Shown piece by piece: positions 15,474 through 21,298 of a stretch of DNA of 36,271 nt. The notes under the pieces were generated by a model that was not told where the DNA came from, searched no databases, and saw nothing but the letters and a program-made list of their open reading frames with translations. The position numbers were made by a program, and so were the translations under genes. This stretch comes from a virus (Duplodnaviria > Heunggongvirae > Uroviricota > Caudoviricetes), in the IMG/VR virus record IMGVR_UViG_2695420676_000012; one strand, 5' to 3'. How positions within the stretch are numbered: the stretch's first letter is position 1; every line of letters starts with the position of its first letter.

Positions 15474-15503
15474 AAACAAAAAAGCCACCCCGAAGGATGG
15501 CTA
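15474..15503 (-). terminator. Rho-independent terminator after the major tail protein gene
   Basis: Minus transcript 'agccatcc-UUCG-gggtggcu' followed by 'uuuuuu'. Confidence 0.55.
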
Positions 15504-15510
15504 GATAATA

Positions 15511-15981
15511 TTAGAGTTTCTGGAAAACAGCTTGTTTAACCGGAGCACCATCTACTACAAAGGTGAAGGTACGGCCTACTACAGTATCCTCACCACCAGT
15601 CATGGTAGTTTTAGACAGGAAGCCGTTATAAGCGATATGTACACCAGATTTTTTCGTAGCGTCGATGTAGTAAGCAATTTTAAGCTGTACGCGCTTACCG
15701 TCTTCGGTTGCTTTAATCAGTTTTTCGTGTACTTCGTTACCCGGCATGTAGTTGATCGAAAGTTCGATATCCGGTACAGACATACGACCAACCAGCTTAC
15801 GGTTATACGGACCACCGAAGTTAGGAACATCGACAGTAGAACGTTCTACACCAGTTTCCGGGAAAGCCGCACATTCTGGAATTTCCAGATAGCTTTCACT
15901 GTCAAGATCGGTGTTAGTTACTTCTTCATGCAGAAACAGACCAACGAGGCCACCAGAAAAAATATCAAATTTAGTAGTCAT
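15511..15981 (-). CDS. major tail (tube) protein, lambda gpV N-domain-like, 156 aa
   Basis: Position just upstream of the chaperone pair; strongly biased high-expression codons; 'ELSINYMPGNEVHEKLIKATEDGKRVQLKIAYY' resembles the gpV 'MPGEQG...YKIRF' region (recollection); own terminator. Confidence 0.6.
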   Translation of the reverse strand: MTTKFDIFSGGLVGLFLHEEVTNTDLDSESYLEIPECAAFPETGVERSTVDVPNFGGPYNRKLVGRMSVPDIELSINYMPGNEVHEKLIKATEDGKRVQLKIAYYIDATKKSGVHIAYNGFLSKTTMTGGEDTVVGRTFTFVVDGAPVKQAVFQKL

Positions 15982-16035: not shown

Positions 16036-16338
16036 TTAGCGGTTGCTCAAACGTCTATAACGAAGATGAGCGATCCCCCTATTTGTGCTAACGGTAATTA
16101 CCGCCCCTTGCGGTGCAATACAAGAATGAATCTGTCCCCAATCATGACCCTTATGGCTTCCAGAAACACACAAACCATGAATAAGCAATTCAGAGTCACC
16201 ACCGCCACCACCGGAAGAATGAGCACAGAATGAAATAGTCCCGAAAGCGTCGGCTGTCCAACCGTTAGGAATATCAAACCATCCTTGATTTGCTTTACCC
16301 GCCCTATTCCCCAAAGCGCCATCTACCCAAAATGCCAT
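16036..16338 (-). CDS. small glycine-rich protein, paralog 3 of 3 (100 aa)
   Basis: Shares 'W....FDIPNGW', Gly-run and 'G..WG...V..G..V' with the two upstream paralogs; start overlaps the upstream stop (TAATG). Confidence 0.55.
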   Translation of the reverse strand: MAFWVDGALGNRAGKANQGWFDIPNGWTADAFGTISFCAHSSGGGGGDSELLIHGLCVSGSHKGHDWGQIHSCIAPQGAVITVSTNRGIAHLRYRRLSNR

Positions 16339-16643
16339 TAGTGCATTCTCCTGAATTTAAAATAATGCAAACTACCTTTACCCAATGTAAAGCTAACGGT
16401 AGCACCAGCGCCAACTAAAGAACTAGCGCCCCAACTCCCAGCATCACCAGCATGATGACCTGATTCAATCAATCCATTTACAGCCAATTCAGAATCAAGA
16501 TCACCAGCACCGTTAATGGCTTCCATATGAGCAAAAACAATTCCGCATGAATCAGTAACCCAGCCGTTGGGGATATCAAAATATCCACCATTAGCCCAAA
16601 TACTAATAGCGTTTGACATTCTTTGATTTATCCATCCAGCCAT
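16338..16643 (-). CDS. small glycine-rich protein, paralog 2 of 3 (101 aa)
   Basis: Same conserved motifs (FDIPNGW, ...TVSFTLG...YFKF) as paralog 1. Confidence 0.55.
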   Translation of the reverse strand: MAGWINQRMSNAISIWANGGYFDIPNGWVTDSCGIVFAHMEAINGAGDLDSELAVNGLIESGHHAGDAGSWGASSLVGAGATVSFTLGKGSLHYFKFRRMH

Positions 16644-16645
16644 AA

Positions 16646-16942
16646 TTAAAACTCCATGAATTTAAAATATTCAACACCACCTTCACCCCCTAAACCAAAG
16701 GAGACGGTGCAGCCAGCAGGAACAAACGAATTTATAGTAGATCCCCAATTGGTCCCACCACGACGACGAGCAACGGTCAAACCATCTACGTTAATATGTG
16801 CATCAGACCACCCACCACCAGCATTATGACGCATTACAGCGACACCAGCACGAGCAGTACCATAGCCGTTAGGAATATCAAATACATGCCATTTTAAAGC
16901 ATCGATTTTAGTATTAATTTCACTACTTACCCAATATCCCAT
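16646..16942 (-). CDS. small glycine-rich protein, paralog 1 of 3 (98 aa)
   Basis: Motifs 'FDIPNGY', 'GGGW', 'TVSFGLGGEGGVEYFKF'; SD 'AAGGA' before ATG. Confidence 0.55.
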   Translation of the reverse strand: MGYWVSSEINTKIDALKWHVFDIPNGYGTARAGVAVMRHNAGGGWSDAHINVDGLTVARRRGGTNWGSTINSFVPAGCTVSFGLGGEGGVEYFKFMEF

Positions 16943-16980
16943 ATAAGAATCCTTAGCGGAGATTTCTCCCCGCTTTCCAA

Positions 16981-19900
16981 TTACCCTAATTTAGCTTCAA
17001 TTGCAGCAAGACGTTCACGAAGAAGTTTATTTTCTTCGCTCATTTCTTGGACCGCTTTAATTAAAAGCGCGTTCACTGCGGAGTTTGAAATTGTTAAAAT
17101 TTCTTCTGGGTTATCAAGACCACCAATTTTTGCGGTTTTAACAGCTTCCGGTAATACCTCTTGTAAATCCTGTGCGATAATACCAATCTCATGACCTATA
17201 ACTTCTCGGTCATTAAGAGATTTAACTTTATCGTAGGTTTTAACTTTGAGTTTATTTACCTTATCCACCGCATTTTCTTCGTAATCTTCAACATTAATTT
17301 TCAGACGACCATCGGAACGAATATAAACATCGTTAAAGTTACCATTACCAGGAGAATAGAAAGTACCATCATGATGAAATTCAAACACCGCTTGAGGATG
17401 ACCAGCCGCTGGCGATGCCTCCGCAGATCCAACGCGAATAATTGCTTGCCCCCAATTTTGAGGAACACGACGCATACCAAAATCGACGGCAGTTGTATAC
17501 CCTTGATTGGTGATTAAACTTCTTCCTTTAATAATTGGATAATAGCTATCTGGTCCTACATAACCATGATCGACAAATATCGGCGCTTCTAATCCCCATT
17601 GATCGCCCCAACCTCCAGATTGGCTAGCAGTCCAACGTTCACCATGAACATAGAATCGAACGTTATTGACATGAGTCATTTCGACACCTTTTGGACTTAG
17701 CGCGATATCACCCGCGTTTGTAATATTGATAGCAGCATTAGTAGCATAGCTATAGAACGCTAATCCATTATCAGCACCACCTTTACCGATATACCAGTTG
17801 TTATTATCAGCACAAGTACCCAGCAAATATATAGACGAATCACCCGTTTCGGCATTCATGACGATTGCGTCAGAACCACGATTAACTTTAAGTTTCCCGA
17901 AGAAGGTGTTTTTAATGGTATTATCACCCAATCGTTCAAATTCTGCGAAAAATCCTTTTGAGTCACGAAGACTTAAAACGTTATTTCGACCTGTATTGCT
18001 TGCCCCCCAATGGACGAGTTCCATATAGTCCATAGATTGACGAGAACCAGCTTTAAAGAAAAGGTTGTCTTCAAGACGGGTACTACCATCAATTCCGAGA
18101 TGCAAACAACGAGCGGTTGCAGTACCACCTAAATACAATCCACCGTCCGCAAAATCATAGCTGAATGGTCTGCGATTATTCCAACTACCAAAAGAATCTT
18201 TTAAATCGGTAGTAAGAATATGGAAGCTAGAACCATCATTGCGTAAAATCAAACCATAGTTACCACCTTTGACAGCCAAACGAGCATTTTCAGATAATGC
18301 AACTTCGCTATTCATTACAATTTTCTGGCCTTTACCGCCAGTAATATGCAATTCACCATCTTCAATCAGGTTTATAGAGTTTTGACCGTTATCGTTCCAC
18401 CAAATAAAATCTTTGGTTGTTCCATCACCAAAACCAAACCAACCATTACGAACATCTTGTCCAGTGCGATAATCCATGAAATTAAAATGACTTGATTCGT
18501 TTGGTCCTCGACGAATATCAATACCAGAATTTCCAGTAACACCGCCATCCAATGTTAATTTCTTGACATGTAACCCGGATGTTGCTGTCAGCAATAATTC
18601 CTGATTTGTATCTTCGTATCCAGTAGCAAGACGATATGCGTTATCATCAACTGTCTCATGCCAGATAGTGGCAGGAGCAGAACTACGGAAGCGACGCAAC
18701 ATTTTCTTAGCATTTGTTTGCTGTTCGTTCAAATGCTCAATGTCGTATTGGCCTTGATGGTTTCCAGCAAAATTTAACGTTCCACGGTTGCTAAAGTTAT
18801 TGAACGATGAAATGTTAAGAGCATCAAAAATTTCATCTGCAACAGGTTTTTCACCACCCAGATATTCAGGAGTATCCAACAGGTTTAAAGAAACACCACC
18901 GGAAGAAACTTGATATTCTGCTAAAACAAATCCTGTATGTGCACCGTAGTAAGCGTAAAGATCGTAATTGTCGCCATCGGTTGGAATAGCGCAAAAATGT
19001 TGTTCATGATGCCAAATAGTATAATACGCATTGAATACAACACCTTTCGGGCTATTGTTGCCGCATCGAATCACCAATTCGATAATATTGGCTTGTCCAT
19101 TATGTCCTACGTTATAACCGTTACCACCAACCAAACGGATCTTAGCCGTGCGACCGTGTTGTTGTGGCATTGTCAAAGTGCCTAGTTTAAACCAACCACC
19201 CTCGATACCAAAATTAAGCGTCTTCTGGAACAGTCGGTCAATTTCTGCTTTCGAATATGCGCCAATTTCAGCCGGAGTAGGTTTATCACCTTCATGATAC
19301 ATGCGGTGAGAATATGCCAAATGTCCCAATTCATCATAGCCGTATGTTCTTACCGTATGAACCGGATTAGACCCATAAGTGAACTCAAAACCACGAGCAT
19401 GATTAACGCCGGATGGGTGCGGAACATGCAAGATCATTGCAATATGACCCGCCAGGTCATTCATGCGAAATGCACCAAAGTAATCAAGATTAAGAGCACT
19501 CGGATCATCAAAAGGGTTTGCGGTCTTAGACAGCAAATAGCCATCAGTGCAAGTGTTTACGTGCTTTTTGATGTACTTGCCATCACTTGATCCATCGGCT
19601 GCATCAATACGGCTTTCTAAACGTGCAAGTTCGGAATCAGTGTAAGACTTGTTATTGTCAACTTTGCTATGAATTGCTGAATTTTTGGCTTCAACATCAC
19701 GGGTTAATGCTGCGACGTTATCCGCTGCCTCTTGCTTATTGGCTGCAATCACACCAGTAAGGTTATTGTAGGTGTCAGTTAACTGATTTTCCGCATAGGC
19801 GTGATTTGCTGCGATAGTGCGGTCAGTTTCTGCCTTAATCAAATCAACTTTGTCATTGATTGCTTTGTGATTGCTTACGATGGTTGCATCGGTACGGGAT

Positions 19901-20391
19901 TTAATATCATCAACTTTTTTATTGATGCGGGTGTCCAGTTCCTGAGTTGCTACAGCAGCCGCATTTTTATTAGCGTTGATGGTATCCGACAATTCAGCTT
20001 TAACACCAGCAAGATCGGAAGCAGCTTTATTTTTATTGGCCTCGATTGTCGCGTCGGTTTCGCGTTTAATTACATCAACTTTATTGTTAATTTCTGCGTG
20101 ATTTGCTGCGATGGTTGCATCAGTAGTTTGTTTAATTTCATCTACTTTAGCGTGAATATTGCGGCCATTTACTGCAATTGTGCTATCCAATTCTTGTTTG
20201 TTAGCATCAACTTTAGATTCTAGTGCCGCGTGAGTTTCAGGAGAAACAGAGATTTGAACTACTTCATGATCTCGGTCTTTGGTAAAAATAACATGGTCTT
20301 TAAGGTTGATTGCTACCTCACCGACCTGTAATTGTTCCGGCGTTGGCTTTTTGCCAGAAACATTAGTTCGTTTAAATTGGATTGATTGCAT
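16981..20391 (-). CDS. tail fibre with C-terminal intramolecular chaperone (peptidase S74-type) domain, 1136 aa
   Basis: C-terminal 'SDGRLK...GIIAQDLQEVLPEAV...LLRERLAAIEAKLG' matches the autoproteolytic chaperone module of T5 L-shaped fibre / endosialidase-type fibres; N-terminal ~22-aa 'KVD.IK..TDATI.ANH' repeats; SD 'GAGGTGA'. Confidence 0.8.
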   Translation of the reverse strand: MQSIQFKRTNVSGKKPTPEQLQVGEVAINLKDHVIFTKDRDHEVVQISVSPETHAALESKVDANKQELDSTIAVNGRNIHAKVDEIKQTTDATIAANHAEINNKVDVIKRETDATIEANKNKAASDLAGVKAELSDTINANKNAAAVATQELDTRINKKVDDIKSRTDATIVSNHKAINDKVDLIKAETDRTIAANHAYAENQLTDTYNNLTGVIAANKQEAADNVAALTRDVEAKNSAIHSKVDNNKSYTDSELARLESRIDAADGSSDGKYIKKHVNTCTDGYLLSKTANPFDDPSALNLDYFGAFRMNDLAGHIAMILHVPHPSGVNHARGFEFTYGSNPVHTVRTYGYDELGHLAYSHRMYHEGDKPTPAEIGAYSKAEIDRLFQKTLNFGIEGGWFKLGTLTMPQQHGRTAKIRLVGGNGYNVGHNGQANIIELVIRCGNNSPKGVVFNAYYTIWHHEQHFCAIPTDGDNYDLYAYYGAHTGFVLAEYQVSSGGVSLNLLDTPEYLGGEKPVADEIFDALNISSFNNFSNRGTLNFAGNHQGQYDIEHLNEQQTNAKKMLRRFRSSAPATIWHETVDDNAYRLATGYEDTNQELLLTATSGLHVKKLTLDGGVTGNSGIDIRRGPNESSHFNFMDYRTGQDVRNGWFGFGDGTTKDFIWWNDNGQNSINLIEDGELHITGGKGQKIVMNSEVALSENARLAVKGGNYGLILRNDGSSFHILTTDLKDSFGSWNNRRPFSYDFADGGLYLGGTATARCLHLGIDGSTRLEDNLFFKAGSRQSMDYMELVHWGASNTGRNNVLSLRDSKGFFAEFERLGDNTIKNTFFGKLKVNRGSDAIVMNAETGDSSIYLLGTCADNNNWYIGKGGADNGLAFYSYATNAAINITNAGDIALSPKGVEMTHVNNVRFYVHGERWTASQSGGWGDQWGLEAPIFVDHGYVGPDSYYPIIKGRSLITNQGYTTAVDFGMRRVPQNWGQAIIRVGSAEASPAAGHPQAVFEFHHDGTFYSPGNGNFNDVYIRSDGRLKINVEDYEENAVDKVNKLKVKTYDKVKSLNDREVIGHEIGIIAQDLQEVLPEAVKTAKIGGLDNPEEILTISNSAVNALLIKAVQEMSEENKLLRERLAAIEAKLG

Positions 20392-20464: not shown

Positions 20465-21298
20465 TCAGTATTCCCCGAAGTCGATCCGGTCATGGATAGA
20501 AACGGCTTCAATCTCGGCTGGTGTCGGTTTTTCTTCCGTGGAATACACTTTCACCCATCCAGAATTACCGTCTTTCTGGACTGTGCGAACTCGTAAACGT
20601 GGTGCGCCGGAAGCGGTGCAAGTTAATTGCCATCCTCCATCTTCATTAGGTTGAACGTGAATTAGTGAAGTATCAGCACTAAATGGGTTAGATGCGCTCG
20701 ATCCCTGATAGGTTACGAAACGGTTTCCGGCTAATGCTTCGCTATCAATCGGACCCGTGAATGGATTTACACCAGCACCCAAACCAAAATCACCTTGACG
20801 TAAGATCCGGCCTTCGGTGGCAATACCACGGTCGAGAATCCCACCATCAGGATCTAATTTAAATTCGATGGTAGTAACTTTGTTATCGCTACCACGGGTT
20901 TTGTGTGATGTGACGTATGCATCAAAAATGACGTAGTATCCTGTGTTAGCAGCACTATAGCCAGAGTTCACAACATAGAACATACGGAAGCGTAAAGGGG
21001 TTTTATCCTCTACCGCTTTCATCAACATTGCTTGATGTTCATCATCCAGAACACGGTTTACTGTGAGTGTTGTTGATTCAAGTTTACGATAGCCAGCCAA
21101 CTTACCAGTAACATCATGGTCATATTCTTCTAACGTCTGGATCTCTGTGGATTCGGTTATCGTCGGAAATGCTGCGATGTTCTCGATAGGACTAAATGCA
21201 GGATCGAAAAAGTCCGGCTGGTTATCCACCATAGTAGACACGGAGACTTCAACATGCGACCCCGTGAAAATGTCTAAGTTATCTTGTGTAATATTCAT
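20465..21298 (-). CDS. tail tube-like / neck structural protein, 277 aa
   Basis: Weak gpV-like pattern ('TLTVNRV...LRFRMFY...YVIFDAYVTS...TTIEFKL'); C-terminal 'KPTPAEIEAVS..DRIDF' also found in the tail fibre; SD 'AAGGGGT'. Confidence 0.4.
   Translation of the reverse strand: MNITQDNLDIFTGSHVEVSVSTMVDNQPDFFDPAFSPIENIAAFPTITESTEIQTLEEYDHDVTGKLAGYRKLESTTLTVNRVLDDEHQAMLMKAVEDKTPLRFRMFYVVNSGYSAANTGYYVIFDAYVTSHKTRGSDNKVTTIEFKLDPDGGILDRGIATEGRILRQGDFGLGAGVNPFTGPIDSEALAGNRFVTYQGSSASNPFSADTSLIHVQPNEDGGWQLTCTASGAPRLRVRTVQKDGNSGWVKVYSTEEKPTPAEIEAVSIHDRIDFGEY

Follow-up and report, generated by a model that had tools for sequence, protein, structure and literature searches.

We analysed a 36,271-nucleotide stretch of viral DNA (the window) in which three small genes, here called A, B and C, lie one behind the other on the minus strand at positions 16646–16942, 16338–16643 and 16036–16338, respectively. 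The open reading frames encode proteins of 98, 101 and 100 amino acids, each of which ends in a signature specific to its class: ...EYFKFMEF for A, ...F.FRRM[HQW] for B and ...RYRRL followed by SNR or GS for C. Genes A and B are separated by 2 nt, the stop codon of B overlaps the start codon of C (TAATG), and a Shine–Dalgarno-like sequence (GGAG/AAGGA) is found 7–10 nt 5′ of each gene. A previous reading of the letters alone (the sequence-only reading) had described three paralogues of about 100 amino acids at this position, packed back to back just downstream of a fibre gene and sharing several sequence blocks, and our analysis bears out each of these points. W4, FDIPNG, G33, D47, G54-L55, W66-G67 and G77 are invariant in a full-length three-way alignment, and pairwise BLASTP comparisons give E values of 2e-12 (A–B), 9e-15 (B–C) and 6e-09 (A–C). 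Judged by these alignments, the paralogy of the three proteins is far above chance level.

A central glycine run, which the same reading had taken to be a feature of the family, did not hold up. The run differs between the three proteins (GGG in A, NGAG in B and GGGGG in C), is variable or missing in their relatives, and falls in a predicted inter-strand loop. Glycine makes up 16–17% of the residues of A, B and C, and the proteins are not built up from glycine-rich repeats. All three genes are under purifying selection, with dN/dS values of 0.04–0.29 across alleles (0.06–0.29 for gene C), and among these genes C is the best conserved.

The gene preceding A encodes a fibre protein of 1,136 amino acids (positions 16981–20391, minus strand). 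This protein matches the Pfam families Gp34_trimer (8e-14), gp37_trimer (0.012) and Peptidase_S74 (4e-14), together with the PHROG of the long tail fibre distal subunit (1e-126). It combines a prophage-specific N-terminal part with a shaft and tip resembling those of gp34 and gp37, and the 3′ ~2.1–2.5 kb of its gene shares 83–97% DNA identity with gene 37 of Krischvirus. Residues 1–1025 are the predicted mature fibre. The remaining residues, 1026–1136 (positions 16984–17316, minus strand), correspond to a C-terminal intramolecular chaperone of the Peptidase_S74 type (PF13884 at residues 1026–1085), which opens with a predicted autocleavage motif, YIR-S1026-DGRL-K1031, that is kept in all partner fibres. 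By extension from its family, the window fibre is expected to cleave itself at S1026. From the cleavage motif on, it aligns to gp37 of S16 (PDB 6F45; CRDLNVSSDRRIK versus FNDVYIRSDGRLK, E 3.5e-4), which puts the two proteins in one class of processed fibres.

A spacer of 38 nt separates the fibre stop codon from gene A. Within it, before the Shine–Dalgarno sequence and ATG of gene A, lies a GC-rich hairpin (GCGGGGAG-AAAT-CTCCGC; positions 16956–16973, minus strand) that has a fold energy of −16 kcal/mol (z −2.1) and no U-tract. The position of this hairpin is kept in E. coli, Salmonella and Krischvirus loci, with loops that vary, and in a T7-like locus (L036) it is swapped for another GC hairpin, GGGAGGG-CTTG-TCCCTCC. 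On the far side of the triplet, gene C is followed by the gene for the major tail (tube) protein (positions 15511–15981, minus strand; PHROG 158 at 8e-20 and Pfam Phage_TTP_12), which belongs to the genomic context and not to the fibre-tip cap discussed below. The sole convincing terminator of the area (positions 15483–15502) is located past the tube gene. Thus, the fibre gene, A, B, C and the tube gene look like one late transcription unit, and A, B and C are most likely to be late structural genes. The backbone of the prophage further encodes a large terminase, a portal, a fused protease–capsid protein, a T5-like distal tail protein and a gpJ-like tip protein; a search of 50,697 phage records returned no relative of this backbone.

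We searched for relatives of the three proteins in sequence databases and in the literature. The family had gone unrecognised in the sequence-only reading, and A, B and C have no family match in Pfam (with a cut-off of E≤1 for the gp38 families), PHROG, NCBIfam or PADLOC. Homology to a characterised non-structural family, which that reading had named as an outcome that would tell against it, was likewise not found in these four databases. Matches to PHROG 9116 (E 0.008), PHROG 746 (E 0.05) and Pfam CAF17_C (E 0.05) are weak and fall under any threshold, and a PDB sequence match to designed ‘Pizza’ propellers (E 3e-4) is a sum over ‘PNGxxxDSAG’ repeats in which no single stretch is significant. 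The family is very small: a set of 5.8 billion proteins holds 35 clusters of it, and a set of 1.84 billion holds 19 representatives. Four of these 19, which are 1,118–3,591 amino acids long and have up to 19 matched stretches, were judged to be low-complexity or repeat artefacts (P0054 consists of unrelated repeats). Gene A occurs in 5 of the 50,697 phage records, which represent four phages (KFS-EC was deposited twice). A scan of genome contigs for the FDIPNG pattern, with one genome per species, gave no confirmed relative, the representative genomes probably being free of the prophage. Every copy of A, B or C that we found is annotated as a hypothetical protein, and no account of the genes was found in the literature on the four phages or on heterotrimeric or C1q-like fibre tips. 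The A/B/C family is thus undescribed in the databases and literature searched.

We then compared copy number and divergence across relatives, a check that the sequence-only reading had suggested, and found three copies in the order A-B-C in every intact locus. Among 24 loci with the family in phages, E. coli, Salmonella and IMG/VR, 22 have exactly this arrangement and the two exceptions are visibly broken, by a deletion in KFS-EC and by a frameshift in L019. The same pattern is seen in five further, distant metagenomic loci, two of them near-identical, which encode proteins of 98/122/100, 98/125/98, 98/114/98 and 98/105/110 amino acids. Hidden Markov models of the three classes, built from the enterobacterial triplets, assigned 14 of the 15 distant metagenomic genes to the class that their place in the triplet predicts. 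The C-terminal signatures of A, B and C are, in turn, shared by Escherichia and Salmonella loci. This positional assignment of distant members, together with the recurring C-termini, indicates that the triplication is old and that all three copies have been retained. Orthologues of gene B in Salmonella and in metagenomes encode an extra 10–30 amino acids at the N terminus.

The constancy of the triplet bears on the main rival to a heterotrimeric assembly of A, B and C, namely that the three proteins are independent adhesin modules. They could then be alternative tip adhesins, each forming its own homotrimer or acting as a monomeric lectin-like unit, that sit on different fibres or in different pockets and broaden host range. 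Modules that are interchangeable in this way should shuffle, come and go, whereas intact loci always contain exactly A-B-C even in very distant lineages, and the class-specific termini persist across the Escherichia, Salmonella and metagenomic lineages. The tight translational coupling of the genes in addition suggests equimolar synthesis. We therefore regard alternative adhesins as an unlikely explanation.

The triplet is also constant in the company that it keeps. Each one is located directly 3′ of a gene for a fibre that ends in Peptidase_S74 with an xRSDxxLK motif, and this linkage is found in three contexts: siphovirus-type prophages of Escherichia and Salmonella, gene 37 of T4-like Krischvirus, and a contig with a T7-type fibre (L036), in which the partner fibre has a Phage_T7_tail domain at its start and the S74 domain at its end.

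The Krischvirus genomes permit a comparison between the triplet and gp38. The cassette of the window shares 97% DNA identity with part of the genome of vB_EcoM_G37-3 (G37-3), a virulent T4-like phage, and the triplet is also present in G2248 and UPWr_E1 and, in truncated form, in KFS-EC. In these phages it is found between gene 37 and orf79/holin t, which is the classical gene-38 slot, so that the triplet and gp38 have a genomic slot in common. A bona fide gp38 occupies the slot in MIZ4 and FL15 (MIZ4 gp38 matches Pfam GP38 at 4e-71). In RB49 the slot is empty and gp38 is displaced to ~45 kb, a displaced position that has been described previously (PMC3157838).

Searches of the phages with an intact triplet by tblastn, using MIZ4 and RB49 gp38 as queries and RB49 as the positive control, gave no gp38 match at E≤0.7; these searches covered 164.7 of 167.8 kb (98%) of G37-3, ~95% of G2248 and 100% of UPWr_E1. 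At the locus where RB49 has its gp38 gene, G37-3 has 37 bp in place of ~908 bp, and the same empty junction is present in G2248 and UPWr_E1. KFS-EC has the opposite configuration. An out-of-register deletion in this phage fuses residue 88 of A to the middle of C at glycine codons, which destroys the triplet, and its gp38 is intact and 98% identical to that of RB49. Thus, gp38 is missing from the sequence covered in all three phages with an intact triplet and present in the one phage with a broken triplet, and the other Krischvirus examined (RB49, MIZ4 and FL15) have gp38 and no triplet. The triplet and gp38 are mutually exclusive in Krischvirus, and no other observation argues as strongly that the triplet takes over the role of gp38.

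In RB49-like phages, experiments support gp38 as the adhesin of the long tail fibre, and host-range mutations map to it (PMC9569957). In phages of the T2/T6 type, gp38 caps the end that is left once the C terminus of gp37 has been removed proteolytically (PMC3157838). Both gp38 and the triplet are encoded directly behind a gene-37-type fibre with an S74-like C terminus. Position alone is nevertheless no proof of adhesin function, because T4 itself uses this slot for a gp38 that serves as a chaperone instead of an adhesin.

The exclusivity with gp38 and the linkage to S74 fibres also weigh on the idea that A, B and C are passenger (‘moron’) genes for superinfection exclusion, anti-defence or lysis that hitch-hike with the recombination-prone 3′ end of the fibre gene. 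Passengers would not be expected to be kept intact under purifying selection in virulent T4-like phages, to exclude gp38, or to be linked to S74 fibres independently in three morphotypes. The genes are, moreover, inside a late structural operon with no promoter or terminator of their own, and their products have no PADLOC match and no signal peptide or transmembrane segment (the maximum hydropathy over 15 residues on the Kyte–Doolittle scale is 1.1–1.3). A passenger role is accordingly highly improbable.

Structure prediction, another of the checks proposed in the sequence-only reading, was run on A and B. The AlphaFold2 models of B (pLDDT 86.3) and A (pLDDT 81.7) agree with each other, and both consist of a single short N-terminal helix of low confidence followed by a compact, high-confidence β-sandwich of eight to ten strands with a jelly-roll arrangement. 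A helix modelled with low confidence is as expected of an element that depends on a binding partner. The closest solved folds are mostly C1q/TNF heads, with carbohydrate-binding modules scoring equally high, and the named matches among predicted viral structures are mostly C-terminal ends of tail fibres, C1q-domain proteins or collagen-repeat proteins. These models place A and B in the fold class of fibre heads and binding modules; the class is not proof of homology, because generic jelly-rolls score similarly.

The predicted fold is relevant to a further explanation, according to which A, B and C help the fibre to assemble or mature, as chaperones or cleavage helpers in the manner of T4 gp38 or Tfa, and do not become part of the virion. 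As small genes co-expressed with a fibre gene and immediately downstream of it, they share the classic position of Tfa in lambda, Mu and P2 and of the T4 gp38 chaperone (PMC3157838). These known factors differ from the triplet in being encoded by a single gene and in belonging to another fold class, whereas the triplet is a conserved set of three genes whose partner fibre chaperones itself. The Tfa protein of Mu remains attached to the tip of the fibre. The fibre of the window already has its own intramolecular chaperone, and fibres with the same tip and chaperone assemble without the triplet in MIZ4, FL15 and RB49, which have the adhesin gp38 instead. The proteins match no Tfa or chaperone family in Pfam, PHROG or NCBIfam, and a jelly-roll of the C1q/CBM-like type is typical of binding heads and unlike known fibre chaperones. 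We consider a role in assembly to be quite unlikely.

The explanation that we favour, with a probability of about 0.58, is that the products of A, B and C form a cap at the distal end of the tail fibre and that this cap is the receptor-binding adhesin. The proposal of the sequence-only reading, that the proteins determine host range as decoration proteins or as adhesins at the fibre tip, is supported by the linkage to S74 fibres in three morphotypes, by the gp38 slot and the exclusivity with gp38, and by the predicted fold. The glycine-rich motifs that had been offered as an argument for it do not serve that purpose: A, B and C have no polyglycine domain like that of gp38 and no homology to gp38. 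The alternation of glycine-rich motifs with hypervariable segments that is a trait of gp38 is absent from A, B and C, each of which has at most one short, non-conserved glycine run.

The cap would accordingly be an analogue of gp38. The adhesin gp38 (PF05268 and PF21721) was not matched by any of the three proteins in Pfam, where MIZ4 gp38 served as the positive control, and an hhalign comparison of the family profile with MIZ4 gp38 gave a probability of 0.2%. The triplet comprises three polypeptides and gp38 is one, although their total sizes are similar (~300 versus 260 amino acids), and the β-sandwich jelly-roll predicted for A and B contrasts with the β-helix and polyglycine-II sandwich of gp38. 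Thus, the cap is most probably analogous and not homologous to gp38, and most probably represents a new, non-homologous form of detachable fibre-tip adhesin.

We envisage that the fibre would trimerise with the aid of its own C-terminal S74 chaperone, which would then cleave itself at S1026 and expose a base with three-fold symmetry. One copy each of A, B and C would dock onto this base through their N-terminal helices, and the three C1q/TNF-like jelly-rolls would pack into a pseudo-threefold knob whose variable loops touch the host surface. In this way, the cap would do the job of the single-chain gp38 adhesin of T2-, S16- and RB49-type phages with an unrelated protein. We infer the virion location, the docking through helices, the 1:1:1 stoichiometry and the binding of a receptor from the genomic and modelling evidence. 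Variation between alleles of A, B and C is concentrated in predicted loops (approximately residues 36–52, 55–65 and 80–90), which is consistent with a knob that turns a variable face to the receptor.

The proposed docking step follows the example of S16 gp38, which has three N-terminal helices with a conserved tryptophan at the apex of each; these tryptophans fill three hydrophobic pockets of gp37 that are equivalent by symmetry (PMC6851490). Each of A, B and C is predicted to have one N-terminal helix, as modelled for A and B. W4, in the first turn of this helix, is invariant in the enterobacterial members, and some distant members have M, L or Q at this position; in gp38, too, the third tryptophan is a tyrosine in RB49. 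Whereas gp38 presents three Trp-tipped helices in one chain, the triplet would present three in total, Trp-tipped in its enterobacterial members, and three chains with one such helix each would match the three gp37 pockets. The motifs GYWVSSE, AGWINQR and AFWVDGA resemble the gp38 motifs PGWIGSS, QRWMSQA and PCWMSQF, a likeness that extends over only 4–5 residues.

We examined whether the triplet is matched to particular fibre tips. The partner fibres have tips of three unrelated types, and identical A/B/C alleles are found with different types, which rules out tip-specific pairing. As a result, there is no tip-specific co-variation to support docking. This objection is weakened by the behaviour of gp38, which likewise occurs with more than one tip type: MIZ4 and FL15 have tip I, and RB49 has tip II, two of the three types seen with the triplet. 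A feature common to all partner fibres is the last few residues before the cut, [ND]-D-[VI]-Y-IRSD, so that docking must use this conserved base and not the variable tip.

A heterotrimer of A, B and C in a 1:1:1 ratio is suggested indirectly by the fixed copy number and order of the genes, the retention of three class lineages, the translational coupling, and the membership of the predicted fold in a family of trimeric knobs. The triplet may be likened to the heads of heterotrimeric complement C1q, with its A, B and C chains, and to those of BclA and collagen VIII NC1. C1q is a trimeric knob built from three paralogous chains. The proteins of the triplet have no match to Pfam C1q (PF00386) or TNF (PF00229), and their sandwiches of ~80 residues are smaller than the 120–135 residues of C1q/TNF heads. 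Unlike those heads, the putative knob would have no covalent continuity with the stalk, and would be assembled from free subunits that each carry a short helix. The likeness of the models to C1q/TNF may therefore be convergent or generic to jelly-rolls. The carbohydrate-binding modules with a similar fold (a pectate-lyase CBM, CBM51, CBM61, CBM36 and CBM35) are monomeric domains within enzymes and have no sequence similarity to A, B or C.

More tentatively, and with the balance somewhat against so specific a claim, the triplet could be the first phage receptor-binding tip that is an obligate heterotrimer of three separately encoded paralogues, with a C1q-like knob and three single Trp-tipped helices, serving as a plug-in module that passes between the S74 fibres of siphoviruses, myoviruses and podoviruses. 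If the proposed cap is correct, S74-processed fibres have a second, unrelated adhesin system, and a homotrimeric fibre carries a natural heterotrimeric cap, which bears on the mismatch between monomer and trimer symmetry at fibre tips. Efforts to engineer or predict the host range of T-even-type phages centre largely on gp38. Receptor-prediction models and gp38 typing would miss phages with the triplet, all copies of which are labelled hypothetical. The small size (3 × ~100 amino acids) and loop variability of such a cap would make it attractive for host-range engineering.

The fibre tip and cap appear to move as a host-range cassette among siphovirus-type prophages, T4-like myoviruses and phages with T7-type fibres. 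The prophage cassette and its counterpart in a virulent T4-like phage are 97% identical in DNA, which documents a recent exchange of a host-range module between temperate and virulent phages. GC content (cassette, 44%; window, 41.5%; G37-3, 40%) is uninformative on the direction of transfer. Among complete E. coli genomes, the cassette is present in 24 of 5,426, in each case on the chromosome, and many of the listed strains come from pigs.

The C-terminus of the fibre protein reads ...LRERLAAIEAKL(F)G in all of the triplet-linked E. coli fibres (16984-17030 in the window, and the equivalent 3' ends elsewhere), and this end is present even where the S74 domain of the fibre belongs to a different subtype elsewhere along its length. 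Because the same end is common to fibres across S74 subtypes, comparison of these sequences suggests that the exchanged cassette takes in the last ~15 codons of the fibre gene as well as genes A, B and C.

A GC-rich hairpin that lacks a U-tract (16956-16973, minus strand) lies after the stop codon of the fibre gene and ahead of gene A. It is kept at the same position in the loci of E. coli, Salmonella and Krischvirus, and is replaced by another GC hairpin in the T7-like fibre locus L036. The annotation of the Krischvirus phage G2248 labels it a terminator, and the hairpin could set the ratio of fibre to cap expression.

The cassette also occurs as deletion derivatives. In phage KFS-EC (L003:5001-5324), residues 1-88 of A are joined to the middle of C, with the junction in the Gly-run codons. 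In the proteins P0026 and P0035, a C-terminal portion of C is attached to the N-terminus of Krischvirus orf79 (MVYNIVIGA). Gly-run codons seem to be hot spots for deletion. Separately, gp37 of the gp38-bearing Krischvirus phages MIZ4 (L025:2438-5206) and FL15 (L026:3438-6197) ends in ...KISKYFKF, which recalls the YFKF block at the C-termini of A and B; this likeness may be due to chance or may be a recombination scar.

Directly upstream of the fibre gene, on the minus strand, lies a gene for a 277-aa protein (20465-21298) that matches the major-tail-protein family phrog_158 over its N-terminal 154 aa (E 4e-9). The 156-aa tube protein (15511-15981) matches the same family, and the module of fibre and A/B/C is therefore flanked by two tube-protein paralogs. 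The 277-aa paralog might form a ring for attachment of the fibre.

Outside the fibre gene and the cassette, the prophage backbone of the window is essentially without DNA relatives in a set of 50,697 deposited phage genomes, where the sole other similarity is a pair of short matches to phage DCP80 at about 69% identity. Among the triplet-bearing Krischvirus phages, G2248 and UPWr_E1 have in common an additional gene that encodes about 715 aa (G2248_00084, L033:46893-49037, and WWT36651, L035:10690-12837, respectively), which is absent from RB49 and G37-3 and adjoins the rI.-1/rI region.
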